Assembly (NCBI RefSeq): GCF_964204645.1
Contig: NC_134025.1
Coordinates: forward strand, 12,586,001-12,650,000
DNA: 64,000 nucleotides
Direction: 5' to 3'
DNA from: Tubulanus polymorphus
Lineage: Eukaryota; Animalia; Nemertea
Part shown: positions 17,231 to 53,184 of the stretch, one piece after another
Layout of the letters: the number at the start of each line of letters is the position of its first letter
Position numbering within the stretch: the first letter of the stretch is position 1
Translations under genes and position numbers: made by a program
Notes under the pieces: model-generated
Databases searched by the model: none
Seen by the model: the letters and a program-made list of their open reading frames with translations, nothing else
Told to the model about the DNA's origin: nothing

Positions 17231-20200
17231 CATTATGAGTTTTCCGGTTTGCTCGGCTACCCGTACTGGCGGGGTAGTCTAGAGAGGCCAATGAAAACTC
17301 CGGTTTGCTAAACCACCCCTCTTTGCGGGGATGCGGTATGATGTTTGATCTGACAGTTTCAAGTGGTTAATGGCTGTTTCAAGTGCTTACAACGATGCTT
17401 ATTACTTCGTGGTACATGGTGGTTTAAAAAAAGATTTCATAATAATACGCTCACCGCGTGGGCTTCGTGGAAAGACCTGTGACCTTCCCAAATTTTAATT
17501 GTCTTGTCCGATTTGGTTTCATCCAATTGAGAGACTGCCTTTTCCAGTTAGGGCATTTTTGGATCACGTCACTCCAGGAAAGGACTTAACGCTTTTGGGC
17601 CCCTTCGTCGGTTCCACATGTTTCATTTGAGCTATAGACCACAATGGTGACACCATGATGGTCAGTAACTGACCAATTGAGATATCCCCGAGTCTGAACA
17701 CTTGACTTCGAATTTCGGAAATTTATCATGTAATGTTTGTTTTCAAACTACTAAGGAATCATCATTGCAAATTCATCACTGACCATCACTGACCACCAAT
17801 GACCAATTCAAACTTCTCCAATATGAAAACGATATACCGCGTTATGGTGTCAAACTAGAAAGGATTCGCCATTGAAAATTCATAAATTGACCATCACTGA
17901 CCACCACTGACCAATTGCAACTTCTTGAAAGAACGATATACCGGTACCGCATTTGGTGTGAAACTAGAAAGGATTCGCCATTAAATTTCATAAATTGACC
18001 ATCACTGACCACCACTGCCCAAGTGAAACTTCTCAAATATCGTGGTCGAATTCGAAAGTGCTTGTCGTCGTATTGCTATTTCTAGAAACCAGCAGAAAGT
18101 TTTGCTACTGTTTTTGAATGGCGTTGACATGATGGAAATTTATTACCCATAAATGGGTTACACATCTGGATCACAGCACCTCACTTGCCGCAGTGCATTA
18201 TTTTCACTGCATAGTAATGCTAATACATAAACTTTTTTACTACTTGACTCGAATCATCTGAACAGTACTGCGTTTGAAAACTCAACGAATAGAAAATGTT
18301 TGCGGGAAGCGCCTACAAATAAGTTATAATAAGATTAATTAATCGATGCATGAAAAACAATTAAATCACAAGGTGACTAACACCCGTCTTTCAACCAATC
18401 TGCGCGATACCAATTAATTAAATCATTAAACGCATTTGGGTTCCTAATATTTGAAATCATGTGATACAATAGTTGTTCTTTAGACTTGGCCACTTTCATT
18501 TCAGAAAACCGCGTACTAGACCAGTGATCACCGAGGCAATAACCATTCCTTCAAGTTATGAAAATTCGATGGTAACGCGGATTCTTCGCCTCTAAAAACT
18601 GTTTCGTTAATAGTTTTCTTTATATGAAAAGTGTTCATAGGAATTGAAATTTGGAGCGATATCAGTCACAGCTGTAACCCTTTTTCATTGTCAGTTCTTT
18701 TTTGGAATTCAAGTAGATTAGTGAAAATATCAATGATGAAGTTCACTTATTATATCAAGTACCGTTTTTACTGTCGCATGCGAGTCGAAACAAAAAGATC
18801 TATCCAACTATATATATCTTCGGGTATAAACTGTGATATCCTTCAGTATGTTATGAATATCTTTAAAAATTTGTGTTCTAGTATAATACCCGAAGGTTTA
18901 ACTATCGGACACATAAAAGATTCGCCATAATCAAAGTTTTTAAGAAAATCTTTCTTCGAGAAAGAAAGATCTTTAAAAGAACGATTGGCGTCAAACTAAT
19001 CCATAATGGACTGTTGTGAATTTATTGAATAATCCACCTGAGAAATTTTAAGATTTCGAAGCGAAATTTATTCATATAAATCAAAAATGCATGAATAACT
19101 TGACGTTATTTGCGGGTCTCATGAAACACTTTCGTGCGCTCTTTTTAAATCTAAAATAGCATAAATACATGCGTGTTTCGTTATAAACACGGTTAAATTC
19201 CAAACGCACATGAAATATGGAGCCTGCATCACACGATATACACATCTTGAATTTTCTCTAACTACGTAGGCCCTTTCCAAATGGGAATTGTTCAGTTTTT
19301 TAACGGCCGACATTCAGAGGCACCTAAAAAAACCGGTTGTATAGCACTTGAGATTTTCAATGTAGGGCACATCTCACATCGACTCGGCTCGCGGTCGGTG
19401 GTTTAATGGGAACACAACTGGTTGTTACTAGTTTAACAGTTGACGAATTCAGAAAACTTTTTTCAAATGTCTTTGATAACTTTTTAAACATAGTATTCTT
19501 CTTAGTTACATTTCGCTGATTCCATAGATATTTTTTCATGAAAATTGCTCCAGTTATAACGGATTTAAACATACATGTAAAATGATTATTTTCAAAATAT
19601 TCTATTTTCTCCGATTTTGAAGAAATTCTGACACAATATCATCTCCACTCGACACATGATTTTACTTCGGCGCCTTTGAAGGGAGTGTCACTTGTTGTTG
19701 AGTTCATATTTAGTCAAACAAGAAGATATGCCTGATTCCTTTTTAGAATTTAGATTTCGACGGATATCATCAAATTACTAGAAAGGGACAGCAGCTTTCG
19801 GTCATCCGCAAAAAAATACCTAAAATGCTCTCCTAGGGTTATGGAAAAACATGTCACGAAACATACAGAAAATCCTTTGTTTGATAGACTGAAATAATTG
19901 AACTCTTAAATAGCAACATTCAGAGAAACAAAAACATAAGAATATATTCTCGCCCACCCTTTAAAAAAACAACGTGATTTCAATTGAAGATGACACGTAG
20001 CCTCATATCAAATGATATGAACGCAACAGAGCCTATTCATTCTCTTTACGAGGATGGGTCTCCACATTCATAGGATACGATACGAGATTCGTGGGTACGA
20101 ATGATGAATACAACTGATAAAGCGCCAATTTCACTGATTCTTGCACATAAAGGTGTTTTAGAGTAATCTAGTTAACAGGTGTGTTTTAGGAGTATTTTGA

Positions 20201-34900: not shown

Positions 34901-35534
34901 CATCCCGCAAACATTTTCTATTCGTTGAGTTTTCAAACGCAGTACTGTTCAGATGATTCGAGTCAAGTAGTAAAAAAGTTTATGTATTAGCATTACTATG
35001 CAGTGAAAATAACGCACTGCGGCAAGTGAGGTGCTGTGATCCAGATGTGTAACCCATTTATGGGTAATAAATTTCCATCATGTCAACGCCATTCAAAAAC
35101 AGTAGCAAAACTTTCTGCTGGTTTCTAGAAATAGCAATACGACGACAAGCACTTTCGAATTCGACCACGATATTTGAGAAGTTTCGCTGGTGGTCAGTGA
35201 TGGTCAATTTATGAATTTTAATGGCGAATCCTTTCTAGTTTCACACCAAAAGCGGTACCGGTATATCGTTCTTTCAAGAAGTTTCAATTGGTCAGTGGTG
35301 GTCAGTGATGGTCAATTTATGAATTTTCAATGGCGAATCCTTTCTAGTTTGACACCATAACGCGGTATATCGTTTTCATATTGGAGAAGTTTGAATTGGT
35401 CATTGGTGGTCAGTGATGGTCAGTGATGAATTTGCAATGATGATTCCTTAGAGGTTTGAAAACAAACATTACATGATAAATTTCCGAAATTCGAAGTCAA
35501 GTGGTCAGACTCGGGGATATCTCAATTGGTCAGT

Positions 35535-35947
35535 AGTAATTAGAAGATGGCGTTTTCAGATCAGCGGTCGAGCGGTCGAGACACCACTCATCACCACAAG
35601 TAATTTTTTTCCCTAATAAATGGGGGAGAATGAACACCAGCCAGAAAACAATAATGTTAATAAAAATCAATATTATTGCCAATATTGTAAAAAATACATT
35701 GATAAATCCCAAAAATCACGACATGAAAAAACTGCAAATCATATAAAAAATGTAATAGATTTTGAAACTCCAGAAAATTCCAATGAAAGAAAAGAACGAT
35801 TAGAAAATATGAATGTGGATGAAATAAAATGTGAAGTTTGTAATGAATTTATAGAAAAAAGGAATTATAATAGACATCTCGAATCACAAAAACACCATCA
35901 AAATTTAAGTAATAATGTTTTAGGAAAAGAATATTTCGATGATAAAC
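35535..35947 (+). repeat. Left terminal inverted repeat (413 bp)
   Basis: Reverse complement of 52323-52735; at least 3 mismatches seen. Confidence 0.93.
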
Positions 35948-38900
35948 CTCAAAAAGTAAAAAAACCAACTTCAAAAACTAAATCCATTTCAAATAAACCT
36001 TACATGGAAAATGTTAGAAATTATATTGATTCACTAGAAATAAAAGATACAATTGAAATTTTAGAAACATTACATAGTAAAATTGGTCCTGCGGCTATTA
36101 TATTTAGATTCTTTAAAGGTACAACAATAGAAGATTATAGTAAATTTAATGAAATAATAGAAAAAATACTAGATTTGATAACAGATGTTGAATATCCAAA
36201 AATTAGTATCTCTGGGAAAGTAAGTTTTATAAAGTCAGAAGAAAAAATGAATTATAATATTCAAACACTCTCTGAAGAAATAATTTCAAAAACACAAATA
36301 AAAGAGAAGTTAGAAAAAATATTAAATGAATTTAAACGTCATATTGAAGAAAGATATTTTGAGGGTTCTGGCTTAACATTGAATGAAATTATATATTTAG
36401 ATTTAAATGTTTACAATACAAAAAGAAATAAAACATCAAAAAGTAAAACAATGTTTAAAAATGATTCAAACTTTACAACAGAAAAGGATATTAAAGCATC
36501 ATCTTATATTAAATTATCATTAACGACAAAAGCAGTAATAAATATTCAAAATGAAGATAATAAATGTTTTCTATGGTCAATTATTAGTTGCTTACATCCA
36601 ACACAGGAAAATGTTTGTAGGATAACAGATTATCGGAAATATGAAACATTATATAAAATTGATCAATATCCAGTAACTATAAAAATGATACCCAAAATAG
36701 AAAAAATTAATAAGTTAAAAATAAATGTATTCGAATTAATGCAATTACCAAAGACAAAAGGTGAAAATATTAAAGATTATACATTGGAAGCTTTATATTT
36801 AACAGAATATTATGATGATGAAAATGCTATAGATTTGTTATATTACAAAAAAGATGAAAATGAACATTATATGTGGTTAAAACAAATTGATTTATTCTTT
36901 AGAACAGAAAGTGATTTTAACAGCCATAAAATTTATCTATGTAGAAAATGTTTATCTAAATTTAGAACTGAGAATGCGTTACTAAAACATAAAGAATTAT
37001 GTGATAATAAAGATTTTTGTAAATTAATAATGCCAACAGAAAAAGATTATAAATAGAAATTTACTAATCATAAATTTAAAAATATTGTTCCATTTGTAAT
37101 TTATGGGGATTTTGAATCGTTGAATAAAGAATTAACTGATCAAGATAGAAAAGAAATATATAACAAAAAGCAATTATTAAAATCAATGGATAAAGGAAAT
37201 GAATTAAATGAAGACACAATACAAGACCCACCAATTATAAATACAATTAAAAAAGTTCATCAAAGAGCTGCTGCTTATGGAATTTACATCAAATCAAATT
37301 ATCCCGAATTATATGAAAGTCAATATATTTCTTTTAGAGGTGAAAATGTAGTTAATGATTTTTGTGATAAAATGATTGAATTAGAAAGTGATTTTGCAAA
37401 ATTATTAAACAAAAATAAAAGAATAGTTATGACAAAAGAAGATGAAATTGATTTTAATTATGCAACTCATTGTTGTTATTGTGAAAAACGTTTTTATTCA
37501 TTTGATAAAAAAGTTAGAGATCATGATCATTTGAATTCAAAATATCGTGGAGCTGCTCATGAAGATTGCAATTTACAAGCTAAAAAAGTTAATTTCGTAC
37601 CAATATTATTTCATAATTTATCAGGCTATGATACCCATCTATTTATAAAACAATTATCAAAGAAATTGGGCGCAATTAATCAGGAAATAGAAGAATATAA
37701 CGCTATGAATGAAGCAAATGTAAGAAAATATGATTTTAAACTATTAGCTAAAACATCTGAAAATTATATTTCATTTCAATTTGGTTGCATTAGATTTTTA
37801 GATTCTTATAGATTTCTAGCAAGTTCATTAGATAATTTATCAAAAAGTTTAGTTGATAATGATTTTGTTATAACTCGATATTATTATCCAAATGAACAAG
37901 ATTTTAAATTATTGAGATATAAAGGCGCAATTCCTTATTCATTTTATAAAACACACAATGATTTTAATGTAACAGAATTATTAAAAGATCAATTTTATGA
38001 TCAATTAAAAGAGGAGTATGTGAAAGATGAAGTGTTTAATAGAACATTAAATATTTGGAACCATTTTAAGATGAAAAATCATGGCGAATTAGTTGATTTA
38101 TATTTAAAATCAGACGTTATGATATTGGCTGACATATTTGAAAAATTTAGAGAAGTTAATTTGAATCATTTTAATGTTGATCCTTGTTATTGTTATTCAA
38201 GTCCTGGTTTAACCTGGCAATGTGGTTTAAAATATACAAATGTAGAATTAGATTTATTAAAAGAACCAGATATGGTTTTATTATTTGAAAAATCAATTAG
38301 AGGTGGAATTAGTGGTGTTATGGGAGATAGGTATTTTAAAGCAAATGATGAATACAAATTATTATATATTGACGCCAATAATTTATATGGTTGGGCAATG
38401 ATGCAACCTCAACCATATAAAAATTTTATATTAACAGAAGTTGAAAATGGTGATAAAACTGATTGGGAAAGCGCAATTGCGAGTTTAAAAGATGAAGCAC
38501 CAATTGGTTATTTCTTCGTAGTTGATTTAGAATATCCTGAAAATATAAAGTTTAAAACTAGAAACTTACCTTATTGCCCAGAACATTTAACTGTAGATGA
38601 TAGTTATTTAAGTGAATACCAGAAGATAATAAAACCGAAAGATCATGTTTTTACAGAAAAATTAATACTTACTCAAAATAATAAATACAATTATATTGTT
38701 CATTATAGAATGTTAAAATTTTATCTAAAACAAGGAATGAAATTAAAGAAAGTACATAGATATATTGAATTTAATCAATCGAAGTGGTTAGAAAAATATA
38801 TAGATTTCAATACTCAACAGAGAACCATATCAAAAACAGATTTTGAAAAAGATTTCTTCAAATTAATGAACAATAGTTTTTATGGTAAAACATGTGAAAA

Positions 38901-40396
38901 TATTAGAAATAGAAATGATATTGAATTAGTAAATAATTCTGAAAGATTAAGACATTTACAATCAAGTCCTAGACATTTAGGAAATAAAAGATTTGAAGAT
39001 TATTTAACAGCAGTTAAATTAAAAAGAACATCAATGAAATTTAATAAACCTATATTTATAGGTTCGACTGTTTTAGAAGTATCAAAATTATCAATGTATG
39101 ATTTTTATTATAATGTTTTACAACCACTTTTTGGGGAAAAGCATATTGAAATATTATATTTTGATTCTGTAACAGCTGACACCCCAATATTATTAAAATG
39201 TAATGATAAAATATTGATAAGAAGAATTTCAGAAATAATTCCAAAACAAAATGAATGTTATATTTCATATGGAGAAAAAGAATTAATACAAATAAATGGT
39301 TTAATGGATGTTTGGACAAGAAATGGATGGAAAAAATTAAAGAATATTATTAGACATAAAACAAATAAGAAAATCTATAGAGTTAGAACTAAATTAGGAT
39401 TTGTAGATGTTACAGAAGATCATAGTTTAATTAAACGAAATGGCGATGAAATAAAACCAACTGATATAAAAATTGGAGATGAATTATTGCATAAAAGATT
39501 TTTCCAAAGAATGAATCATATGTCATTTGATGAAATTATTGATAATATTTATAATATAGAACCCGAAACATTAGAAGAAAAAGAATATTTTATCAAAGGA
39601 TTTTTCATGGGTGATGGTTCAGCAGGTGTGTATAATTATGTTAATCGCACTCAATATTGCTGGTATTTATGCAATCAAGACTTAAAATTATTAGAAAGAA
39701 TTAAGAAATTCTGTGAAGAAGTTTATTCACATAAAACATTCAAAATCATAGATGTTATGAAATCATCGCAATGTTATAGAATACTTGTAAATAATCCTAA
39801 AGATTTTAAGCCATGTAGAAAATGAGTTAACAGAAGAAGTTAAGGATTTATTTGAAATACATAACCCATCAGATTATGTTTATGATTTATCAACTGAAGA
39901 TGGTACATTTAACTGTGGATTTCCATTAATAGCGGTCAATACTGACGCCTACATACTAAAAATCAAGACAAATGACATAACAAAAGACTTAAAAACATTA
40001 AAACATTATTTTGAATTTAGCTATTATCCTAAAGATCATGAACTATTTAGCAATGATAATAAAAAGATTCCTGGTAAATTTAAAGATGAATTAGGGGGTG
40101 ATGAAATGATTGAATTTGTTGGGATAAGAAGTAAAATGTATAGTTACAGAACAAAAGATCATGAAGCTAAAAAGTTAAAAGGAATAACAAAACATGTGGT
40201 TGATAAACATATAGAATTTCAAGATTATATAAAGTGTTTATATAAATCAATTGTTATGAAACACAAAATGAATTGTTTAAGATCAGAAGATCATGAGATG
40301 TACATTAATGAAGTTGAAAAAACTAGTTTAAATCCATTTGATGATAAAAGGCATATTTTAGATGATGGTATAAAAACATTACCTTATGGCCATTAA
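35620..40396 (+). pseudogene. polB: Protein-primed family B DNA polymerase (pPolB) with N-terminal Zn fingers, an endonuclease VII-like insert and an intein; disrupted
   Basis: ORFs 35620-37056 and 37120-39825 are in the same frame, separated by one TAG (37054). Motifs: ExoI YGDFES, EndoVII-like VRDHDH..YRGAAHEDCN, ExoII FHNLSGYD, ExoIII YLKSDV, motif A YIDANNLYG, motif B KLMNNSFYGK, motif C YFD|TD, then GKFKDE and RSKMY. There is a frameshift at ~39810. Confidence 0.93.
39166..39940 (+). mobile_element. Intein (pol-c insertion site) with a partially deleted LAGLIDADG homing endonuclease
   Basis: N-junction ILYFD|SVTADTPILL (block A), VDVTEDHSLI (block B, TxxH), KGFFMGDGSA (LAGLIDADG block C), YVYDLSTEDGTF (block F) and LIAVN|TDAY (terminal Asn, +1 Thr). 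Removing it restores YFDTD. Confidence 0.92.
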
Positions 40397-41708
40397 AACA
40401 TAAAATCAATATCATCATACTCGAAATCACTATTGGCTTCTTCATTTTCATTTAATTGTTCAGGTTCTTCTTCCATTCCATTTTTCTCATTTAAATAAAG
40501 TTCTATCTTGTTCCACATTTCATCTCGCTCTCTTTGTTTCTTTTTGTTTGTTAATTCGTCAAATGGAATTATAATATCTAGGTTTAAATAATTTACAATC
40601 TTATTTAAAAAGAATTCATAAATTATTGAATCTGTTATTCTATTTTCCAAATGATACATTAATATTTGTTTGAATATTTTTTTTATATTTTCCATATCTT
40701 CTTCTGTTAATTTAGGTTTTTCATAATAATCGTTAAATAATAAATATAAATACATTTTCTTTTGTTTTGTGTTAAATGTTGGCGGAATAATTGTTTTTAT
40801 AATATCTTTTTTGTTATTTCACCATTTTCATTTTCTATTATTTTCATTTTTTCAAGCCATTGCATATATTCTGGAGTATGATCTTCCATAGAAAATATTT
40901 TAAAAATTTCATCTAGATAATTCAATTTTGGATCTATGAGAAAATCTCTAGTTTTTTCTTCACCCAATAAATTCTTTTGCCATCCACATTCATTACAAAA
41001 TAACACAGTACCTTCTTGTCTTAAGGTCGCATAACTACATTGTGGACATTTTCGTTTATAATTTACTGGTAATAGATCTTCATTAAGCTCTTGGTATTTT
41101 CTTAAGTTTTCTTTATGTTTTATTGTTCTATTATGTAGATTTGAATTACTTGTTGTAATAATCAATTTACAATATTTACAATAATATGTTTTTCTTGTTA
41201 ATTCATTATATTGTTTTTCTAACTTTTCAACTGTTTCTTCATTATCTGGTAACGTTTTCTCATATTTTATTTTTTCTAATAAATTATTTTTTCTTTCATT
41301 AAATTCAGTTTCAAATTTATTATAAATTTTATATATATGTACTTTACGAAATTGATGATTCTCCCAATCTTCTATATTTTCAGGGCTATATTTTATTCGA
41401 CAAGGCTCGCAGAAATGATCTTTTATATTATCCTTATCATAGAAAAAGAAAGGTCTTTTCCAAATAACTTCAGGTTCAACTTCAGCAGAATTACTATTAC
41501 TTTCATTACTATCAACATTGGCCGTTGCGCCATTAATTCTACACTTATCTGAATGTTTTTTAACATAATTTCTTGAGAATGATTTATTACATTTTGGACA
41601 GTTTATTTTAGGGGGTTTATAATTTTCATCATGTTTTTTCATATGTCGAGCCATATTACTTTTTCTTAGAAGTTCATCACAAATTTCACATGCTATCTTC
41701 TCATCCAT
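40393..41708 (-). pseudogene. Multi-zinc-finger protein (probably one ORF, frameshifted at a homopolymer near 40810)
   Basis: ORF 40797-41708 has several CxxC...H/C fingers. An open alternative frame (KDIIKTIIPPTFNTKQKKM) links it to ORF 40393-40755. Confidence 0.65.
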
Positions 41709-41776
41709 TTATTTAGGAAAAATTTTATTAAAATTAATTTTTAGTGATGAGCGGTAATTTTTTTATGTTATAAATA

Positions 41777-42533
41777 ATGGTAGAATTAAAAGAATACAGA
41801 ATATTTGTTGATTCTAGAAAACTTAAAAATTATAAATCACATAATTTACTAGTACAATTAGATAGAGAATTTAAGAATTGTGTTGATTTAAAATTAGTAA
41901 ATATAAGTTTATGTAACTCATTTTACAATATATCGGATAAAACTCTTGAACATAGTCTTTTTAATTTTTAATAAAAATAATCATAAATGGTTTCATCTAT
42001 TTTTAAAACCAGGGTTATATAATTTAGAAACATTAGCCCAAGAAATTAATCGGAAAGCACGATTAAAACTTGAAAGTGAAGATAAATTTTCAATTAGATT
42101 TATAAAAAGTGATAGTTCTGATAAAATTAAAATAAAGTTAGATGATGAAAGCAAACATGCATTTATGGTAAGGAAACCTTTAGCTAAACTGTTAGGAATT
42201 AAACCACAAATTGTTACAGGAAACGTAGACGGTAATTCAAATATAATACCTTTTACACATTTTTATATTTATTGCAATTTAATCGATCCTACAAAAACAT
42301 TTGAAGCAACTAAAGATACAACATGTAATTCTAGTATATTAAATATTTTACCAATGAAGAACGTTAAACAATTTGGAACTCAAATAAATTATAATTTAAC
42401 TGAATGTGATTTCAAACCTTGTATTCCACATTTCAATAATTTTAAATTAGAAATAAGAAATCATAATGGATATTTAATTGATTTGAATAACTTTCCTGTA
42501 ATTTATGAATTAGTCATAAGATGTAAAGAGTAA
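41777..42533 (+). pseudogene. Minor capsid protein (penton, single jelly roll), frameshifted near 41950
   Basis: Motifs IFVDSR..., NSFYNI, PGLYNLETL...IN, LAKLLG, FYIYCNLI and LEIRNHNGYLIDLN follow the Polinton/NCLDV penton pattern as remembered. Confidence 0.7.
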
Positions 42534-42549
42534 TTTTTTCATTATATAA

Positions 42550-43050
42550 ATGAATATAACTGTTGGACCGAGTATATGTTTTGGGTTTGATTTTAAACGT
42601 GAGAAAGAAATGAAATTTAACATTAATGATGTAATTACACATATCAAAAATATTGCATTTTCTAATGAAACAACATTTGAGTATGAAACAACAATAGATA
42701 AAGAAACTTTAAATGTAGAAAAGATTACTAATTTAATTAGAGAATCTTTAAGATTTTATGAATTAGATGAAGATTTTATCATAGATGATATCAAAAACAT
42801 ATTATCCAAAATATATGATAATCATAAAAGTAGTAAAATCAAGTGGATAATAACTGGATTATATAATGGCGCCTTACTATCAGTTGCAACTGATGGTTAT
42901 TCAATGGTATTAAAAAAAGTATTCAAAATGGGAAGTGTTAATGTTGATAGATTTGATATAAATGATATTTTAAAATTAACATTAGCAGTTACTTTATCTA
43001 ATTTAACTATTGATTATTTGGAAAAACAAAAATATATTCCTCCCATATAA
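42550..43050 (+). CDS. Hypothetical Maverick protein (166 aa, hydrophobic C-terminal helices)
   Basis: Intact ORF with a T-tract/TAAATG start. Confidence 0.7.
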   Translation: MNITVGPSICFGFDFKREKEMKFNINDVITHIKNIAFSNETTFEYETTIDKETLNVEKITNLIRESLRFYELDEDFIIDDIKNILSKIYDNHKSSKIKWIITGLYNGALLSVATDGYSMVLKKVFKMGSVNVDRFDINDILKLTLAVTLSNLTIDYLEKQKYIPPI

Positions 43051-43055
43051 ATACA

Positions 43056-43077
43056 TAATTTTTTTGTTAAATAAATG
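43056..43077 (+). promoter_or_regulatory. Representative conserved promoter/initiator motif AAT(6-7)-N(5-7)-TAAATG found at most Maverick ORF starts
   Basis: The same architecture occurs at starts 35620, 41708(-), 42550, 43075, 43516, 43967, 45372, 46696, 50411, 51794(-) and 52650(-). TAAATG with little or no T-tract occurs at 47966, 49095/49675 and 50949. Confidence 0.8.
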
Positions 43078-43497
43078 GCTTCTGCAATTATAACTATTAT
43101 AGGATCGGCAATTGTTAACGCTTTGGCATTTACTGGTGGTGGATATTTATTTAAACATATTGATAAAAATAGTTCATTAGGAGAACAAAGAAGACATAAC
43201 TTAGCATTAGAGAAATATAATAAAGCTGCAGAAGAATATAGAGAAAAACGACAAAACTATATGGATTATATTAACAAGGAATTATATGATCAGAAGATTT
43301 CACATAGAGATTTTCAATCAGTTGATGATGCAATGAGTTTATATAACGCGGTAACCAATAAAGAAAAATTACATCTATACAAACCTAAATTATCAGATTA
43401 TTATACCCCAAGTAAAGAACAACAGAAATATGAAATAATATGGATTTTAGGTGGAACTGTTATTGTTATATTTGTTGCTTATAAGTTTACTAATTAG
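43075..43497 (+). CDS. Hypothetical membrane-associated virion protein (140 aa)
   Basis: N-terminal amphipathic/hydrophobic segment, EQRRHN plus coiled coil, C-terminal TM; TAAATG start. Confidence 0.7.
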   Translation: MASAIITIIGSAIVNALAFTGGGYLFKHIDKNSSLGEQRRHNLALEKYNKAAEEYREKRQNYMDYINKELYDQKISHRDFQSVDDAMSLYNAVTNKEKLHLYKPKLSDYYTPSKEQQKYEIIWILGGTVIVIFVAYKFTN

Positions 43498-43515
43498 TAA
43501 TTTTTTTCTAAATAA

Positions 43516-43977
43516 ATGGAAGATAAAGTTGATAGTATTGATATTATTCCTCATGATATAAATAAAACTAAATTAAAAACATATTTAGAAAAACAAATAT
43601 TAGAATTTGAAAGTGACTTAAAGATAAAAAAGAAAAAATATTTAAAAAGTAAAATTATATATTATTTGATTATAAGTGGTTCGGTTACAATTAGTTCTGT
43701 AATAACATTTCTAGTAATATTCAGTCCATTAACACCTTTAGCTATATCAATTGGTGTGTTAGGATTAAGTTCAAGTGTTTTAACCGGAATAAGTTCAAAA
43801 TTGAATATAAAAAGTAATAAAGAAAAAATAAAATCTAATATAAAAGAAATTAATAAATTAAAGAATACACTAGATTATATAATAAGTTTAAATGGCCATA
43901 TAACAGTTGAAGAACAAGATAAATTATTAAAAGAATTAATAAATTATAAATTTTTTAATTATATAAATGGTAGATAG
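43516..43977 (+). CDS. Hypothetical two-TM coiled-coil protein (153 aa)
   Basis: Intact ORF with a central hydrophobic hairpin; TAAATG start. Confidence 0.7.
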   Translation: MEDKVDSIDIIPHDINKTKLKTYLEKQILEFESDLKIKKKKYLKSKIIYYLIISGSVTISSVITFLVIFSPLTPLAISIGVLGLSSSVLTGISSKLNIKSNKEKIKSNIKEINKLKNTLDYIISLNGHITVEEQDKLLKELINYKFFNYINGR

Positions 43978-45355
43978 TTTTCCAAAAGCTTTCCAATATA
44001 ATAAATCAATTAAATATAATATTCCAGCAACAGATTTTAATAAAGATATTACATATAGAAATAAAGTTTTAGATTCATTAACTAATTTAGAAATTTATGT
44101 TACTGAAACTAATAATTTTAATGCAAAGATGGAAAATATATTTCATGTATATTTAATTAATTTTAAAAAATTGAAAGATGAAAAACAATGGTTATTGAAA
44201 TCTAATATGAAGTATTGGCAGAACCAATTAAATTTTGCTGTTTATTGTGCAACAACAGGATGTGGAATTAGTTGGAATGATCATTTGAATAATTCTAAAT
44301 ATAAATTAATTCAAAGTTTATTTAGATTTCATACATACTTTCAAATCAGAATAATATTAAATGAATTAGAGTGCGCTTTACCAGGATCTAGATATTTTAA
44401 AGAATTAGATAATAATATTAATTTATCTAAGTTTTATAAGATTTGCAATGAATTTAATATAGATATAAATAATTCTGATTTTAGAACAAAAATTGGAACA
44501 ATAAGATCACTTCCTTGCCCTAAAAAGGTTGCAGAATATTGTGCACTTCCCATACCATCTAATAGTTTTTATAATATCTATAATAATAAATTAGGTTATG
44601 GTAAAATAGAAACTAAGGATTTAGAAACATTAAATTTCAATAAATTACCGAAATTTTATGATCATTTTAAACAAGAAAACAATAATGGTTGGGTTTATTT
44701 TATTTTAGAAAATAGTGAAGGTTTTACTAAATCAGGTATAGAAAGAATAAATCAATCTATTAGAACTTATTTGATTTGTATTCTAGGATCACAAGTTGAA
44801 ACAAGATCACCGATAATTGGAAATTTGAATACATCATTCGACACACAAAAACAATTTAAAGTATTATTTGAAGATTCCATACATAATGATAAAAATAGAT
44901 CGATTCCAGAAAACATTATTAGATATCAAAATTATTTAGATAAATCACATATTAGATTAAATTATTGTATAGGCCCTAATCTATTAATTATTTCTAATGA
45001 TTTAGTATTAAAGATGGGAAATATAATTGGTTATAATAATCTAATTAAAACTGCGACAATAAATAATTCATTTGGGTTAAATGATATAAATAAAAAGATT
45101 ATCACTGCTCCAAAATTAATGGAAGGTGAAAAAAATAAAAAACATATTCAATCAACAGAAACTAAAACTAAGAATATTAAATTGGATAATGATTCCAAAA
45201 TAAAAGATTACAATACTACAGAAAATATTAAAACTGATAATATTCAACATGATATAATTAAAACTGATAATGACAATAAATCCCATGAAAATACTAAATT
45301 AGCTATAACTTGTATAGGAATTGTAATCGGAGGAATATTATATTTTAAATTTTAA
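43967..45355 (+). CDS. Hypothetical Maverick protein (462 aa, C-terminal TM)
   Basis: Long intact ORF containing WQNQLNFAVYCATTGCGIS and FRFHTYFQIR; function not recognised. Confidence 0.75.
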   Translation: MVDSFPKAFQYNKSIKYNIPATDFNKDITYRNKVLDSLTNLEIYVTETNNFNAKMENIFHVYLINFKKLKDEKQWLLKSNMKYWQNQLNFAVYCATTGCGISWNDHLNNSKYKLIQSLFRFHTYFQIRIILNELECALPGSRYFKELDNNINLSKFYKICNEFNIDINNSDFRTKIGTIRSLPCPKKVAEYCALPIPSNSFYNIYNNKLGYGKIETKDLETLNFNKLPKFYDHFKQENNNGWVYFILENSEGFTKSGIERINQSIRTYLICILGSQVETRSPIIGNLNTSFDTQKQFKVLFEDSIHNDKNRSIPENIIRYQNYLDKSHIRLNYCIGPNLLIISNDLVLKMGNIIGYNNLIKTATINNSFGLNDINKKIITAPKLMEGEKNKKHIQSTETKTKNIKLDNDSKIKDYNTTENIKTDNIQHDIIKTDNDNKSHENTKLAITCIGIVIGGILYFKF

Positions 45356-45371
45356 TTTTTTTATTATATAA

Positions 45372-46671
45372 ATGGATGTAGAAGGTGGAGAAGGTTTTCC
45401 ATTGGATCCTTTAGATGAACCTGGTATAAGTGATGAACAACCACCTGATTTTGATGAAACACGTTTTAATGACGGTAATGACCCAGAATATAATAATAAT
45501 TTAAATATGCCTGATTATATTAAAAATGCTGAATCACAATTAGATCCTGAAAATTTAGACCCATATTTAGTAAAAGAAGATTTAGATAATAAAAACAAAA
45601 TAGCTAAATTAGAAGATTTAATTAAAAAATCTAAACTTAACATAAATGATGAAGACGTTGGACCTTTAGCAGATCAATTAAGATTTTTAGATAATGGTAA
45701 ATGTTATTATCATTTGAAAGATGATTGTTATATTGCTATCACTCATAAAGATAATAAAAATAAAATATTAACAAAATCAACTTTGAGTGATTTACATCCA
45801 GATAGAATTAGAAGAATAAGTAATATTAATGATATAGAAGAATATTTAACACAAACAGAAATGAATAAAAATAGAGAAGTATTTAAACAAAGAATTAATG
45901 AATTATTTGAAATAATCAAAAAGAAATCAGAAACAGAAACAACTTCTGAACAGAATATAACTTCCAAAAATAGTAAACTTAAATCAAATAAAGTTCCGAT
46001 TGAAAAACTATTACCGAATAGATTACTTGATGCAACAGATCAAGAATTAGAAGATTTAGATATATTTTCTGATAAAGCAATTAGAGAGATTATTAGTATA
46101 AGAAATGCATCTGATAAAATTGCGCATGATAAAAGTATAAGAGATTTTAAAATTAGAACTTTAGAAAAAGTTAACTGATAAAAATAAAGAAATAGAACAA
46201 TTAAAATTAGATAGAGATAATAAAGTTATTGAAGAAATTGAATTTAAAAAAAGAAATACATATTTAGAAAAAGAAAAAGATGATTTAGAATATAACATAG
46301 AATTACAAAAAGAAGAAATTAAATTATTATTAAAATCATATGATTATAATAATAATAGATTAAAAGTTATTTTTAAAGATTTGTTGATAAAACCAGATTC
46401 TAAAATATCATTGAAAGATAGAATAAAGTTATTGTTTAAATTAGAAGGAATAACAATTCTTTCAATTCTAACAGCTGTAACTATGTTATTTACAACAATT
46501 GGTTTAGCTATATCAAATGCTTTAAAATCTACTCCTACTCCCACTCCCAATAAACCAGATAAACCCCCAGGTAATAATTCTATACAAGATAAAGTTAAGG
46601 ATGGTTTTTTTATTTTTTATTACAGTTGTAAGTGCTATTATTTTTGGGTAAGTAAACATGATCAAAAATAA
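45372..46671 (+). pseudogene. Acidic/coiled-coil protein with a C-terminal hydrophobic segment; disrupted
   Basis: ORF 45372-46178 continues after a frameshift into the frame ending in ORF 46381-46671 (LKDRIKLLFKLEGITILSILTA). Confidence 0.6.
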
Positions 46672-46695
46672 AGAATTAATTTTTTTGTTAAATAA

Positions 46696-47935
46696 ATGAG
46701 TGGGAGTTATATAAGTCCTTCTAAGATTTCTAGAATATCTAATAAGCAGAAAGATCACATCGTATAATTACTCATAACCCTTCAAATATTAATCCCGATG
46801 AAACTTTATATGTTAGAATTCCTAGATTAACACAAAATACTTTTTATGTTCCAAATAGTATTTATTTATCAGCCGATATAAAAGTAACTGGCCATGATAA
46901 CAATTATGTTGTTGATAATGTTGGAAGATATTTGATTAAGAAATTAACTATAAAGATTGGTCCGGAAACAGTTTTCTCATTAGATGATTATAATTTATTT
47001 ATGCATTATAAAGATTTATGGTTAACTAAAGAAAATAGAAATAATATGATATTTCAAGGCATCCAATCGGAAAACCATAATAAATTAAGATCAGGAGCTA
47101 ATGACGCAATAGTAACTCGTGCCGCAGATAATTTGATTAAAAAGATTTATGGAAGCAAATATAAAATTCCATTAGATTTTGAATTGATAAATAATAATGC
47201 ACCTTTATATAAATACGCAATTCAAGAAGATATTATATTTGAGATAACATTTGCTCCTGTAAATGAAATTGTATTATCTAGCGTTGTTAAAGATATGAGT
47301 TATAAATTATCGAATATATGTTTAGAATATGATACAGTAACTGATGAAAATATTTCAAGTATAATTCAAACTCAATACAATCAAGGATTTTCATTATTAT
47401 ATGATTATATTGATAAATTTAAAACCGTAACTATTAATGCAAATGATGAAATAATTAATGAGAATATTAACTTCCCAAGAAGATCTATTAAAGGTATATT
47501 AATATTTTTTACCATTGCAACATATTCTAATGGCGCAATAAGGTAGATAATTATTATAATCCTGAAATAACAAAAGTAGAAATAACTATCGAAGGAATAG
47601 CAAATAAAATATTTTGCCAAGGAATGAGAATGATAGATCAGTGGCCAGAAATTAGAAAACATTTTATGAATGAAAAAGTAAAATCATTTGAAAATTGTAA
47701 TATTAATCAAATTGATTATTATACCGGCAATAAATATGCATTATGGTTAGATTTTAGAACAACAGAGGATAATTCATTACATGGTTCTGGGAAAAAACTA
47801 CAGAACACTAAAGATGGAATACAATTATTCATGAAAAAGAAAAAAGGAAGCTTAAATTTTAAAATGCATATTTATATTATATCTGACGCGCAATTAAATA
47901 TTGTAAATTCACAATTAGATAGTATTCAATATTAG
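46696..47935 (+). pseudogene. Major capsid protein (double jelly roll), frameshifted near 46750 and 47540
   Basis: Reconstructed to about 410 aa: THNPSNINPDETLYVRIPRL...NVGRYLIKKLTIKI...YKDLW...KIPLDF...ICLEYD...PRRSIKGIL...YYNPEITKVEITIEG...LWLDFRT..DNSLHGSG...SDAQLNI. It is beta-rich and of MCP size, and starts at a TAAATG (46696). Confidence 0.75.
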
Positions 47936-47965
47936 AAATATAAAGTTAAAATTAAGGATATATAA

Positions 47966-49094
47966 ATGGGTGGTAAAAAAACTCCTAATACTAAAGAACA
48001 ATATTTAAGAAATTTATATTACAACCCTGAGAGTTCGGTTGCTTATTCTTCTACTAAAAATATGTGGCGTAAAGTAAAACAAGATAAATTAGATAAGATA
48101 ATCCCACAAAATTTAGTTAAATATAAAGATATAAATGAATTTATGTTAGAACAACCAACATATACAACACATAAAAAAATTGTTAGAAAATATAAAACTC
48201 GTAAAACTATGGTAAGTTATGTAGATCAACAGTGGCAAGGAGATTTAATTGATATGAAAAATGTTAAGAAAGATAATGATGATTATTGGTGGTTATTGAA
48301 TATGATTGATATTTTTAGTCGTTATGTATGGAGCTTCCCACTTTATAGAAAAGATGCTGTACAAACATCAAATGTTTTAAGAAAATTTCTTTCGGATGAT
48401 AAACTAAAACCAGAAAGAAATACAATTTGATGATGGAAAAGAGTTTGATAATTCACTTGTTCATGAACTCTTAGACAATCATAATATTGAATATTTTTCA
48501 ACAAAATCGGATAAAAAAGCAGCAGTTGTTGAACGATTTAATAGAACATTAAGAACAAGAATGTGGAAATATTTTACAGCAAATAATACTTTTAAATGGA
48601 TTGATGTTTTGCCAAAATTGATAGAAGGATATAATAATTCTTATCATTCTTCTATTGGAATGAAACCTATTGATGCTAGAAAACCTGAAAATGCTGAAAT
48701 TGTTTGGAATAATTTATATGGAGCATTTCTTGTAGATGATTTTGGTGAACCTAAATTTAAAGTTGGTCAAAATGTGAGAATTTCTAAGTATAAAAAGATA
48801 TTTGATAAAGGATACGATCGAAATTTTACTAGAGAAATATATAAAATAAAAAAGGTAATAACAACAAAACCATATGTCTATAAATTAGAAGATTTAGATG
48901 GTGAAGAAGTTGATGGCTACTTTTACGAAGAAGAATTAAGTTTAACTACTGAAAATCTAGAACAAGAATATAAAATTGAAAAAGTATTAAAAACAAAAAC
49001 TATTAAAGGAAAAAAATATTCTTTAGTAAAATGGGTTGGATGGCCAGATAAATTCAATGAATGGATATTATCAAGTAAAATTAAAAATATATAA
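47966..49094 (+). pseudogene. Retroviral-like (rve) integrase with C-terminal chromodomain, frameshifted near 48418
   Basis: DDE triad WQGDLIDM / QFDDGKEF / VVERFNRT, then YNNSYHSSIGMKP. Chromodomain YKIEKVLK...SLVKWVGWPDKFNEWI. Confidence 0.92.
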
Positions 49095-49920
49095 ATGAAT
49101 AAGGAATTATTCATATTTGAGCCTCATAATATGTTAATTTCTGGTGTAACAAATTGTGGAAAAACTTATTTTAGATTAAATTTATTAGAAATTGTTTATG
49201 AAAACTATTTTGATAATATAGTATTATTTTGTCCAACATATGAATTTAATCAAACTTATGATAGAAATATTACTAGGAATAATAAATTTATTATATTAGA
49301 TCCTAAAACAGTAAAAGAAAATTTAGATAATTGTATTAAAAGTTGGTCAAAATGTGAGAATTTCTAAGTATAAAAAGATATTTGATAAAGGATACGATCG
49401 AAATTTTACTAGAGAAATATATAAAATAAAAAAGGTAATAACAACAAAACCATATGTCTATAAATTAGAAGATTTAGATGGTGAAGAAGTTGATGGCTAC
49501 TTTTACGAAGAAGAATTAAGTTTAACTACTGAAAATCTAGAACAAGAATATAAAATTGAAAAAGTATTAAAAACAAAAACTATTAAAGGAAAAAAATATT
49601 CTTTAGTAAAATGGGTTGGATGGCCAGATAAATTCAATGAATGGATATTATCAAGTAAAATTAAAAATATATAAATGAATAAGGAATTATTCATATTTGA
49701 GCCTCATAATATGTTAATTTCTGGTGTAACAAATTGTGGAAAAACTTATTTTATATTAAATTTATTAGAAACTGTTTATGAAAACTATTTTGATAATATA
49801 GTATTATTTTGTCCAACATATGAATTTAATCAAACTTATGATAGAAATATTACTAGGAATAATAAATTTATTATATTAGATCCTAAAACAGTAAAAGAAA
49901 ATTTAGATAATTGTATTAAA
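48761..49920 (+). repeat. 580-bp tandem duplication (integrase 3' end plus ATPase 5' end)
   Basis: 48761-49340 matches 49341-49920 with at least 2 substitutions. It creates partial ORFs 49095-49367 and 49354-49674. Confidence 0.93.
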
Positions 49921-50245
49921 ATAGCAATTGATATTTGTAAAGGATCAAATACATTATTCATTATAGATGATTGTGCTAATCTACATGATTCAAAAGTTAG
50001 AGAAAGTGAATTATGCTATTTAGCTTTCTCTGGGAGACATTTTGGGATAACAACTTGGGTTTTAAATCAAAAATATAATTCAATTGTTAAAGACTTTAGA
50101 GAAAACATTAGATTTCTAGTTTTATTCTACAATAAAGATAGAAAATCTGTGAATATATAATGAATATATGGATAAGTTGAAAAATATTAAAAGATCAAAA
50201 TTATTATTTAGATTACAACACCCATTTAAATATGAATTTATTTAA
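49675..50245 (+). pseudogene. A32/FtsK-HerA-like DNA packaging ATPase, disrupted near 50155
   Basis: Walker A GVTNCGKT, Walker B LFIIDD, arginine finger SGRH and the NQKY motif. A C-terminal tail lies in another frame and ends at 50245. Confidence 0.88.
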
Positions 50246-50410
50246 ATTCAATTAGTTTGTTAATCTAGTTGAATTCTAGTTATTAGTATTTGTAACAAAA
50301 ATCAAATAGATTTAACAATATTTCAACTAGCTTGTTAATCTAGTTAAATTCTAGTTACATTCTAGTTAAATTCTAGTTGCAACATCACAACTAATTTTTT
50401 TGTTATATAA

Positions 50411-51016
50411 ATGGTAGGTGAAAAGAAAATAAAATCTAAAAATGGTGATGTTCCAATTGAAAAAACTTTAGATGATTTAGGAATAACAGAAAACAAATTA
50501 ATTCCAGATGATGGTGCTTTAAATAATGTTACAACAAATAATAATTATGAATATTATCTTTATTGCAAACATCAATTAGAAATATTAATAGCATCTGGAA
50601 AATGTAAAAAATTTGTCGATAAAAATTTAACTTATAATGAATTAGATGCAATGAAATCAAATGAAATTATTAGATTATTTAAGATTTATGAAGCCGCGAG
50701 AACAGCTAAAATTAATGACGCGATATCAGAAAATGTAGTAAAAGGTTATAGTAAATTATGTAATTATATACTACCAATTGAAAATGAAAATAGATTATAT
50801 TCCGATTTAAAAAATGACTATTTAGTTATGACTGAATTAAATAAATGGATTGGATATTCATCATTTCAATTAGGTGGATTTATGACATTATTATCAACCG
50901 GGGTTATAACATTTTCAAATATTGAAAGTAAAAATATTTCTATAATAAATGAGCGAAGTGAAAGAAGCGAAGGAATTAACTGTGAAGAAAAAACCGAGAA
51001 CTCAGAAACAAATTGA
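50411..51016 (+). CDS. Hypothetical Maverick protein (201 aa)
   Basis: Intact ORF with a T-tract/TAAATG start. Confidence 0.7.
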   Translation: MVGEKKIKSKNGDVPIEKTLDDLGITENKLIPDDGALNNVTTNNNYEYYLYCKHQLEILIASGKCKKFVDKNLTYNELDAMKSNEIIRLFKIYEAARTAKINDAISENVVKGYSKLCNYILPIENENRLYSDLKNDYLVMTELNKWIGYSSFQLGGFMTLLSTGVITFSNIESKNISIINERSERSEGINCEEKTENSETN

Positions 51017-51359
51017 ATGGTCTCGGCAATTAGGAATTAAATCACAAGAATATAAAAAAGCTGTAAAAGAAAAAATGAGTAATAAAAATGTTAATAAAAA
51101 TGGTGAAAATATTGTTATTTCTACTCCTTCTGATAGTAGAATATTTGATAAATATTTATATTTTACAGTTGGATTTGTAATTGTATTCATTTTGATTGGG
51201 TGTGATTGGTATAAGAAATCAAATAAAATTCATGATGTTAGTAATTCTGAACCAACTGCTATCAAAAATGAAAGTACTTCTGAAATTCCAAAATTGATAA
51301 TAAAAAAATGGATTAATATTTTAGAAAAAAAGCAAAAAAAAATAATTTTTTTTAATTAA
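50949..51359 (+). CDS. Hypothetical basic protein with a TM segment (136 aa)
   Basis: KKKPRTQKQIEWSRQLG followed by YLYFTVGFVIVFILIG; TAAATG start. Confidence 0.62.
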   Translation: MSEVKEAKELTVKKKPRTQKQIEWSRQLGIKSQEYKKAVKEKMSNKNVNKNGENIVISTPSDSRIFDKYLYFTVGFVIVFILIGCDWYKKSNKIHDVSNSEPTAIKNESTSEIPKLIIKKWINILEKKQKKIIFFN

Positions 51360-51467
51360 TTGAATATCTCACTACTTTTGTCTATCTATGCGGAGCAATC
51401 AAATTGTCCAGATAAGTCATTTCGGATTCTAGATATTCATTATTTTTATTAATTTATTTTTTTTAAT

Positions 51468-51794
51468 TTAATCAACAATTTCTAAATCATGATGGCCGTC
51501 TTCATTTTTTCCATGATAGATTATTTTAGATCCTTCTAAATCTTTTAATTCCTCTGTACTCAATGAAACCCATTTATCAGGTAAAAATACTTTAAATTCT
51601 CGCGATGTACTAACATTACAGTAGCTTAAATTAGCTGATACTTTCTCTCCATATTTAGTTTTTATCTTTTTAATTTCAATATTTTATGTTCAATTTCTTT
51701 TGTAACATCAACTAACTTTTTTATTTCAAATTGTTTTTTTTGCTGGTTTTATTCTGTTATTTATTGTTGCTAAGAATGTTTTTCTATCTCCCAT
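51468..51794 (-). pseudogene. Small (~108 aa) beta-rich protein missed by the ORF track; frameshifted
   Basis: TAAATG start at 51794 (MGDRKTFLATINNRIK...). The C-terminal frame reads IKKIKTKYGEKVSANL...FKVFLPDKW...KIIYHGKNEDGHHDLEIVD*. Confidence 0.6.
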
Positions 51795-52104
51795 TTATAA
51801 GGAAAACAAATTACTTGTGGTTAAGAGTGGGGATTACTTCCCCCTGTATATAACAAGCGCGCTATTAACCGTTCTCACCCAAGCCTCACAGCATCTATTT
51901 ATCCGGGTACAGTTGACACGCAATCACTGTACTACTACAGTAATAGCACACGCGTTAACCGTTCTCAGTAGAGACTCACTGTATCGATCTATCCACGCGC
52001 AGTTGTTGTTACGCGCACTCACTGTATATGTGTGTCACAGAGCAATCGTCCGTTCTCACTAGAGCCTAGCTGTGATGAGTGGTGTCTCGTACCCGGTTGA
52101 ATTA

Positions 52105-52650
52105 TTATTTTGAGTTATGATATTTTGAATTAAGATGGTGTGATTTATTGCTTCGAGTATAATATTTTCAACAATCACATAACACTTTTTCATTAGGTTC
52201 ATATTTAGGTGTAACAATTTCATTATCTAAGTTACATTGAACTGCAACATCTTTATATGATTTTTCATTATCTAATTCACATTGAATACCAATATTTGAT
52301 GAATTTTCATTATAGATAATTTGTTTATCATCGAAATAATCTTTTCCTAAAACATTATTACTTAAATTTTGATGGTGTTTTTGTGATTCGAGATGTCTAT
52401 TATAATTCCTTTTTGTTATAAATTCATTACAAACTTCACATTTTATTTCATCCACATTCATATTTTCTAATCGTTCTTTTCTTTCATTGGAATTTTCTGG
52501 AGTTTCAAAATCTATTACATTTTTTATATGATTTGCAGTTTTTTCATGTCGTGATTTTTGGGATTTATCAATGTATTTTTTACAATATTGGCAATAATAT
52601 TGATTTTTATTAACATTATTGTTTTCTGGCTGGTGTTCATTCTCCCCCAT
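52105..52650 (-). pseudogene. Zinc-finger protein sharing its first ~109 aa with pPolB via the TIR; premature TGA at 52168-52170
   Basis: Reading through the stop completes a third finger: CDC*KYYTRSNKSHHLNSKYH. Confidence 0.7.
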
Positions 52651-52735
52651 TTATTAGGGAAAAAAATTACTTGTGGTGATGAGTGGTGTCTCGACCGCTC
52701 GACCGCTGATCTGAAAACGCCATCTTCTAATTACT
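52323..52735 (-). repeat. Right terminal inverted repeat (413 bp)
   Basis: Reverse complement of 35535-35947. Confidence 0.93.
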
Positions 52736-53184
52736 GTCAGTTACTGACCATCATGGTGTCACCATTGTGGTCTATAGCTCAAATGAAACATGTGGAACCG
52801 ACGAAGGGGCCCAAAAGCGTTAAGTCATTTCCTGGAGTGAAGTGATCCAAAAATGCCCTAACTGGAAAAGGCAGTCTCTCAATTGGATGAAACCAAATCG
52901 GACAGGACAATTAAAATTTGGGAAGGCCACAGGCAGTGGTCTTTCTACGAAGCCCACGCGGTGAGCGTATTATTATGAAATCTTTTTTTAAACCACCATG
53001 TACCACGAAGTAATAAGCATCGTTGTAAGCACTTGAAACAGCCATTAACCACTTGAAACTGTCAGATCAAACATCACACCGCATCCCCGCAAAGAGGGGT
53101 GGTTCAGCAAACCGGAGTTTTCATTAGCCTCTCTAGACTACCCCGCCAGTACGGGTAGCCGAGCAAACCGGAAAACTCATAATG

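Follow-up and report, generated by a model that had tools for sequence, protein, structure and literature searches.

Promoters that copy a motif of another virus have been reported from integrating DNA viruses of protists. Mavirus and the endogenous mavirus-like elements (EMALEs) of Cafeteria, as well as PgVV (Gezel-14T) of Phaeocystis, are elements of 15-25 kb with a DNA polymerase B of the protein-primed type (pPolB), an integrase and a double-jelly-roll (DJR) capsid protein, and their promoters reproduce a motif of the helper giant virus (10.1101/068312; PMC8547959; 10.1101/2022.07.28.501842). Mavirus shares the late promoter motif of Cafeteria roenbergensis virus (CroV) (10.1101/068312), PgVV shares an early motif of Phaeocystis globosa virus (PgV) (10.1101/2022.07.28.501842), and diverse promoter motifs occur in endogenous virophages (PMC8547959). 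In addition, Polinton-like viruses (PLVs) have been found in occlusion bodies of entomopoxviruses and proposed to be hyperparasites of animal poxviruses (Barth et al. 2024, PMC11296320); the main text of that report does not contain the words 'promoter', 'motif', 'transcription' or 'VLTF', nor does the searched portion of its supplement contain 'promoter' or 'VLTF'. Here we describe a Maverick/Polinton element in the nemertean Tubulanus polymorphus, in which a motif of the poxvirus late type stands before nearly every gene. The element occupies 35535..52735 of a 64,000-nucleotide stretch of contig NC_134025.1 (assembly GCF_964204645.1, positions 12,586,001 to 12,650,000), which is called the window and to whose first letter all coordinates refer. 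Mimicry of helper promoters is known from virophages; what would be new is a poxvirus-type version in a Maverick with a probable late factor gene of its own.

The element resembles the virophages in lacking an RNA polymerase of its own. When 109 six-frame segments of at least 38 amino acids were screened against Pfam, no family of RNA polymerase, TBP, TFIIB or capping enzyme was matched, in agreement with an earlier sequence-only reading of this DNA as far as RNA polymerase is concerned. The virophages differ in that they belong to protists, have mimivirids as helpers, on which their dependence was shown by experiment, and use the motifs TCTA or AAAATTGA, whereas the present element is of the Maverick type and has a pox-type motif and its own VLTF3-like gene. 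The entomopoxvirus PLVs are likewise Polinton-related, although two of them have no detectable integrase and two have tyrosine recombinases (PMC11296320). Animal Mavericks (adintoviruses, Polintoviricetes), and the VLTF3-bearing subset in particular, share with the element the terminal inverted repeats (TIRs), a 6-bp target-site duplication (TSD), pPolB, an rve integrase, an A32 ATPase and a DJR capsid; the differences are that 46 of 48 related loci show no significant motif, and that the element has no protease match and carries an intein in polymerase motif C. Mriyaviruses are small DJR viruses that also have VLTF3 and no RNA polymerase, but they have no DNA polymerase, encode VLTF2 together with an HUH endonuclease, and are taken to be autonomous viruses of the nucleus (PMC11253617). 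No description of poxvirus-late promoters in Mavericks was found in the Polinton literature covered, mostly open-access papers. By the terms searched, Maverick promoters are not discussed in the accessible parts of 10.64898/2026.10.13.758929, 10.64898/2026.06.19.733378, PMC8502044 (adintovirus), 10.1101/2024.03.23.586382 (egovirus) and PMC11161782.

TAAATG overlaps the start codon at 13 of 14 independent gene starts, and the fourteenth, that of the penton-like gene, reads TAAATAATG. All 14 TAAATG starts listed by the sequence-only reading were recovered at their positions, as was its penton-like start; a further one, at 49095, had escaped it. This site, a copy within an internal duplication, and 52650 (-), a TIR copy of 35620, were left out of the independent set. 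Upstream of the hexamer lies a core whose positions are counted from the T of TAAAT. All 14 starts, integrase and ATPase included, share A(-14), T(-11) and A(-1), while A(-15) is found at 13, and T(-10), T(-9) and T(-8) at 12 of 14. The core spans -16..-7 (10 nt of A and T) and is followed by a 6-nt spacer. The runs of five to seven T described earlier as ending 5-7 nt upstream do so at 11 of the 14 starts, with aatttttttgttaaaTAAATG at both 43075 and 46696, as reported; no run is found at 50949, and that at 51794 is interrupted. The upstream 30 nt hold 26.1 bits of information, against maxima of 18.8 bits in 10,000 shuffles and 19.7 bits in 10,000 rotations. Judged by a leave-one-out matrix for the 16 nt upstream, 13 starts stand apart from the element's remaining 29 TAAATG sites (p=1.8e-7).

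The individual sites, core and initiator together, precede pPolB (35601..35622, +, inside the TIR, leave-one-out score 11.5), the VLTF3-like gene (41706..41727, -, 12.8), the penton-like gene (41755..41779, +), ORF166 (42531..42552, +), ORF140 (43056..43077, +), ORF153 (43497..43518, +), ORF462 (43948..43969, +, within the coding sequence of ORF153), ORF268 (45353..45374, +), the major capsid gene (46677..46698, +), the integrase (47947..47968, +), the ATPase (49656..49677, +), ORF201 (50392..50413, +), ORF136 (50930..50951, +, score -2.0, within the coding sequence of ORF201) and the gene starting at 51794 (51792..51813, -, with the interrupted T-run). The TIR copy of the polymerase motif (52648..52669, -) lies ahead of a 160-aa ORF. 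The lowest scores belong to the integrase, the ATPase and ORF136, all three of which retain the fixed columns. The integrase and ATPase were said to have an A-rich segment instead of the T-run. Their cores are indeed A-richer and lack the 3' T's, but they keep the same A(-14)/T(-11)/T(-10) core and show no different motif. These three starts thus represent a weaker form of a single motif, not clearly an intermediate class, and the proposed split into late (T-rich) and intermediate (A-rich) starts is weak, all starts sharing one fixed core. In vaccinia, A2L and A32L, homologues of two genes of the element with an A-richer core, are intermediate genes (PMC11980589). A separate early class is not seen either: polymerase, integrase and VLTF3-like gene share the motif.

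Some other short signals lie near these starts. The decamer CRCTCATCAC, at 35585-35594 (+), 41744-41753 (-), 52072-52081 (-) and 52676-52685 (-), precedes the promoters of the polymerase and VLTF3-like genes and recurs in copies derived from the TIR. It is a possible second, regulatory element of the non-structural genes; with one mismatch allowed it occurs six times in the whole window against 3.4 expected, which is not above chance. Close to the end of the TIR, AAGATGGCG (35543-35551) resembles a YY1 site, and TAAATGG, present at 9 of 13 starts, overlaps a YY1 core as well.

The association of the hexamer with gene starts is far beyond chance. The element contains 44 copies of TAAATG, 29 of them away from starts. 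With hand-chosen starts, listed when the motif was already known, it is found at 15/16 starts against 29/668 other ATGs (p=1.6e-18), and with mechanically called ORFs at 11/17 against 32/649 (p=2e-10), the six ORFs without it being downstream pieces of broken genes. An ORF caller favours TAAATG, because TAA before ATG is an in-frame stop; in 200 third-order Markov simulations, however, this effect gave the hexamer at only 948 of 12,434 first-ATG ORFs (7.6%). The enrichment over the A+T-rich background expected by the sequence-only reading is thus borne out. The composite of T-run and TAAATG was observed 12 times, compared with a mean of 1.8 and a maximum of 7 in simulations, and is absent from 46.8 kb of host flank. 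The TAAATG starts are genuine gene starts: of 10 genes tested, 8 show homology that sets in ahead of the second methionine, the other two having no usable match.

In vaccinia late promoters, TAAAT, with the G that usually comes next, overlaps the start codon, and ten nt upstream a T is conserved among other T's (PMC11980589). A T-containing core is located 5-7 bp from TAAAT (PMC5294985); a core of 8-11 nt lies about 6 nt before the initiator, and poly(A) leaders arise by slippage (PMC12722222). The element has the same arrangement, with TAAAT(G) over the start at 13 of 14 starts and TAAATAATG at the remaining one, a T-rich core 5-7 nt upstream, T at -10 in 12 of 14, and a core of about 10 nt with a 6-nt spacer. 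The two differ in that the element has the motif before all genes, the polymerase included, whereas vaccinia E9L is early; the element also has the invariant A-14 and T-11 columns and neither RNA polymerase nor capping enzyme. A chordopoxvirus stretch (L193; A26, A27 and A28 families), pulled by the window's pattern, has TAAATG at 4 of 4 starts. The vaccinia-late likeness put forward earlier stands as to core, spacer and T-10 geometry, but 'poxvirus' proved too narrow, since TATATA lies next to the ATG in 6 of 17 ORFs of the element. TATATA is an asfarvirus-type late signal (PMC11788076), and for this reason the class of the presumed helper is kept at pox- or asfar-like.

The sequence-only reading missed a broken gene at 40393..41708 (-), itself preceded by the motif, which by its sequence is, with moderate confidence, a gene for a late transcription factor like VLTF3, with additional zinc fingers at the N-terminus and a frameshift near 40800. 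Its distal, C-terminal piece of 120 aa scores 25.4 bits with Pox_VLTF3 (PF04947; cut-off 25), and 24.6 bits when extended to 141 aa. All 30 matches in the Atlas were VLTF3 clusters, at a low recognition score. The proximal piece ends in a zinc ribbon, and this ribbon shows a weak alignment to the N-terminal part of VLTF3 from a related locus, L039; a significant direct match between the gene and that protein was not obtained, and word-based searches with its two pieces returned nothing. The protein of L039 (L039:5447-6085, +) is a clear VLTF3 (E 1e-16), which itself gave three weak, partial matches to viral contigs. VLTF3 in some Maverick/Polinton elements is already on record, coral polintoviruses among them (PMC11131425, which cites Krupovic and Koonin 2016).

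Related loci were screened for the motif where at least five ORFs were available. With a corrected threshold, enrichment of TAAATG is significant in 2 of 48 PolB-related loci, L011 (7/7 starts) and L110 (5/13), so that the motif is not a general effect of A+T richness. L011, with 7/7, is 38% G+C, and this also speaks against a tie to A+T content; TAAATG is found at 1/10 starts in L019 (22% G+C), 0/9 in L002 and 0/6 in L107. The distribution of the motif is lineage-patchy, and a by-product of base composition is rejected. L011 and L110 are unrelated-looking Polinton-like contigs, and 10 of 13 starts in L110 have TAAA within 2 nt. The closest relative, L023, has TAAATG at 3/5 starts (p=0.005), the short loci L060, L102 and L030 at 2/3, 2/2 and 2/3, and all 148 loci pooled at 40/604. 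Six related loci together provide 21 TAAATG starts, of which 13 have A-14 and 12 have T-11; this is looser than the 14/14 of the element. TATATA-type starts occur in 7 of 48 Polinton-like loci. In L039, TATATA lies within 4 nt of the ATG in 6/10 ORFs compared with 3/435 other ATGs, and TAAATG at 1/10; these starts are like the asfarvirus late initiator, while the virion module of L039 is the same as that of the element. A quick PolB tree was made of 71 rows, without L046, L059, L106 and L020, whose matches were short. In it the TAAATG label takes two changes against the four same-virion rows, and 46 of 500 shuffles are as low; the tree settles neither a single nor a multiple origin of the motif. 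Pattern searches at the DNA level gave nine chance matches with a strict pattern, while a looser one picked out 120 loci, spread over 8 of the 64 parts into which the collection is divided. Among the 123 loci examined (these 120 and L158-L160), five have at least three TAAATG starts: one poxvirus stretch, one stretch of another large virus, and three phage-like in appearance.

From the motif, its spacing, the gene content and the rarity among relatives, which are observed, we infer with a probability of roughly 0.55 that the motif is a promoter of the poxvirus late type, read by the late machinery of a large DNA virus, of the pox or asfar type, that infects the same cell. The integrated element would be silent in uninfected cells. 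Upon infection, late factors and RNA polymerase of the helper would initiate RNA inside TAAAT, likely slipping to leave a short poly(A) leader right before the AUG, and all genes, polymerase and integrase included, would be switched on together late in the helper cycle. The element would then replicate and be packaged in or near the factory of the helper, as mavirus does with CroV. Its VLTF3-like protein may tune the late complex of the helper or compete with it; it would not start a cascade, because its own gene needs the same promoter. The sequence-only reading had assigned the genes to a viral, cytoplasmic RNA polymerase and not to host Pol II. The poor fit of TATA-box and translation-context readings agrees with this, but the VLTF3-like gene was not taken into account, and on sequence grounds the assignment is only likely.

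The alternative that survives best, though still unlikely, is an autonomous nuclear system, in which the VLTF3-like protein of the element would bind the core and recruit host Pol II to TAAAT, a mode presumed also for mriyaviruses and others that bear VLTF3 but no RNA polymerase, the likeness to poxviruses then reflecting a shared factor. The presence of the gene itself speaks for it, as do the VLTF3 of coral polintoviruses (PMC11131425), the chromodomain integrase, which implies a nuclear phase, and the mriyaviruses, which have retained VLTF2 and VLTF3, possess no RNA polymerase and are believed to be nuclear (PMC11253617). On the other hand, the gene stands behind the motif, so that no gene could set the cascade off, except where virus particles bring the protein with them. 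A helper is favoured because every gene, the VLTF3-like one included, is behind the motif and no early gene is left for this role. It is also favoured because L039, with the same virion module and a clear VLTF3, has another initiator, and because VLTF3 was not seen among the screened ORFs of L011, L110 and L023, three loci of the TAAATG type whose contigs are incomplete and were screened in part. In vaccinia, A2 (VLTF3) is only one of several late factors (PMC11980589), and initiation by Pol II in TAAAT would leave a 5' leader of at most three bases.

Less probable still is an element-specific promoter read by some other factor of the host or element, such as the product of an orphan ORF or a host initiator-binding factor, the likeness to poxviruses being a convergence of short A+T-rich signals. 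Six conserved or orphan ORFs of the element have no assigned function and could supply such a factor, A-14 and T-11 are stricter here than in the six related loci, and other Polinton-like loci have other A+T motifs next to the ATG, such as the TATATA type. Convergence would, however, have to account for an initiator, an overlap with ATG, a spacer length and a T-rich core that all agree with the vaccinia late design, in an element that holds a probable homologue of a factor of that very system.

A conventional TATA box of Pol II, expected about 25-30 nt before a start site upstream of the ATG, does not account for the motif: TATAWAW at -100..-21 is found at 2/14 starts, about chance, and it abuts the ATG (-7/-8) at 7/14, from where Pol II would initiate inside the gene and skip start codons supported by homology. 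T at -3 is a disfavoured base in the Kozak context. A reading without any promoter, in which TAAATG would serve as a context for translation start or stop-start coupling and the T-run would end the upstream gene as its terminator or another 3' signal, is very improbable. In its favour, the spacers are very short, T-runs directly follow the upstream stop at the penton-like gene, ORF140 and ORF462, and runs of five or more T are depleted on coding strands in comparison with synonymous shuffles (z -4.5). Against it, TAA is the upstream stop at 1/14 starts only (the ATPase), and the T-run persists inside coding sequence (43967) as well as where no same-strand gene lies upstream, at 35620 in the TIR and at 41708 and 41777, which form a divergent pair. 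In addition, T is at -3 in 13/13, the conserved columns at -17 and -14 from the ATG are beyond any start context, and runs of six or more A are depleted as much (z -3.9).

Several observations weigh against a helper of the poxvirus type and its late machinery. The match with poxviruses is one of design, not letter for letter, because three of the four L193 starts score poorly with the upstream matrix of the window (7.0 at the site by which the pattern picked the locus, then -2.4, -16.4 and -23.5). The invariant A-14 is not among the poxvirus late features described in the parts of the published reports considered. The class of the helper is not fixed, because TAAATG starts are also found in a large-virus record that is not a poxvirus, G001, at 4/9 ORFs of one stretch (L220) and 3/20 of a second; the two stretches, L220 and L281, belong to a 287-kb contig with a capping-enzyme triphosphatase domain. 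For a viral polymerase to act on a copy integrated in the nucleus, an initial step is required that the helper reading leaves unexplained, and for which the mavirus preprint proposes nuclear entry of a late factor (10.1101/068312); moreover, a nuclear life is assumed for viruses that bear VLTF3 but lack RNA polymerase (PMC11253617). Composition tests do not discriminate: AATAAA on the sense strand is not depleted (59 against 54 expected), nor in any of 26 comparison loci, and the depletion of T-runs is non-specific, since A-runs are depleted to a like degree.

The element itself is a decayed Maverick of 17,201 bp with 76% A+T in flanks of about 36% G+C. It is bounded by TIRs of 413 nt that are 99% complementary (35535..35947, + and 52323..52735, -), the left one containing the promoter and start of the polymerase gene, and by GTCAGT as a 6-bp TSD (35529-35534 and 52736-52741). 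These termini, together with pPolB and rve integrase, DJR capsid and A32 ATPase, identify it as a Maverick/Polinton. Most core genes are disrupted by frameshifts or stops, and this copy is unlikely to be active. Both flanks (35188-35534 and 52736-53184) match one continuous inverted copy at 17231-18014, which indicates insertion into a recently duplicated host repeat and makes the empty site visible in the window. A fragment of a Penelope-like retroelement (GIY-YIG; 8457-9377, -) was the sole family match among 46 of 50 long flank frames scanned.

The pPolB gene (35620..40396, +) encodes N-terminal zinc fingers and is broken by an in-frame stop and a frameshift; it matches DNA_pol_B_2 (PF03175; E 8e-21), and its N-terminus is colinear with that of a full-length relative, P0121 (65%). 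Motif C is interrupted by a broken intein (39166..39940, +) with a homing-endonuclease motif inside, as seen from matches to Intein_splicing of Pfam (E 0.002, below cut-off) and to PI-PkoII of PDB (E 3.6e-6). This intein is absent from P0121, the closest full-length relative, and was not found in 136 related proteins or in 148 loci. Polymerases of large DNA viruses carry inteins at motif C, and the present one may originate from a co-infecting virus. The probable minor capsid (penton) gene (41777..42533, +; frameshifted) takes its label from the sequence-only reading, with weak support: a weak pairwise match (E 2e-4) to an unannotated ORF (L050:7604-8344). It is followed on the same strand by ORF166 (42550-43050), ORF140 (43075-43497), which is a conserved Maverick gene, ORF153 (43516-43977), ORF462 (43967-45355), for which the Atlas gave no usable match, and the broken ORF268 gene (45372-46671). 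The DJR major capsid gene (46696..47935, +; two frameshifts) matches Maverick capsid proteins at 32-39%, and a model of its product (pLDDT 61.5) resembles both D13 of vaccinia and the capsid of PBCV-1, with E values from 5e-4 to 9e-4. The frameshifted integrase (47966..49094, +) has rve (E 1e-5) and Chromo domains. The end of the integrase and the start of the ATPase are duplicated at 49076..49674 (+), and the ATPase motif accordingly recurs at 49095; the tandem duplication of about 580 nt (49095-49674) is either a real rearrangement or an assembly error. The A32-type packaging ATPase (49675..50250, +; Pox_A32, E 3.6e-13) is frameshifted close to its end. ORF201 (50411-51016, +), ORF136 (50949-51359, +), a small broken gene (~51468-51794, -) and the 160-aa ORF (52168-52650, -) complete the set.

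The small gene is not a protease, and none of the 109 segments matched a protease family, the adenain-type cysteine protease included. Most members of Maverick/Polinton group 1 have the adenain-type protease (10.64898/2026.06.19.733378). Several conserved genes without an assigned function are common to the element and L037, L039, L050 and L106, and no relatives turned up when viral contigs were scanned with the ATPase, ORF140 and ORF462. At the convergent ends (ORF136 and the region past the 51794 gene, 51330-51360) each strand has its own run of seven or eight T, possibly a terminator.

A strict motif of the poxvirus late type before nearly every gene bears on the transcription of animal Mavericks and on their possible need for a helper virus. 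Tentatively, and with less confidence than in the promoter itself, some Mavericks of animal germlines may be regarded as provirophages of poxvirus-like viruses: their genes would be wired to the late machinery of the helper, a captured VLTF3 would serve to hijack or jam it, and the type of promoter, TAAATG (pox-like) or TATATA (asfar-like), would tell which virus wakes the element, which would point to undiscovered pox-like viruses of these hosts. If this is true, endogenous virophages would extend from protists to animals and poxviruses, Mavericks could be sorted by helper from sequence, and large DNA viruses could be predicted in hosts where none is known.

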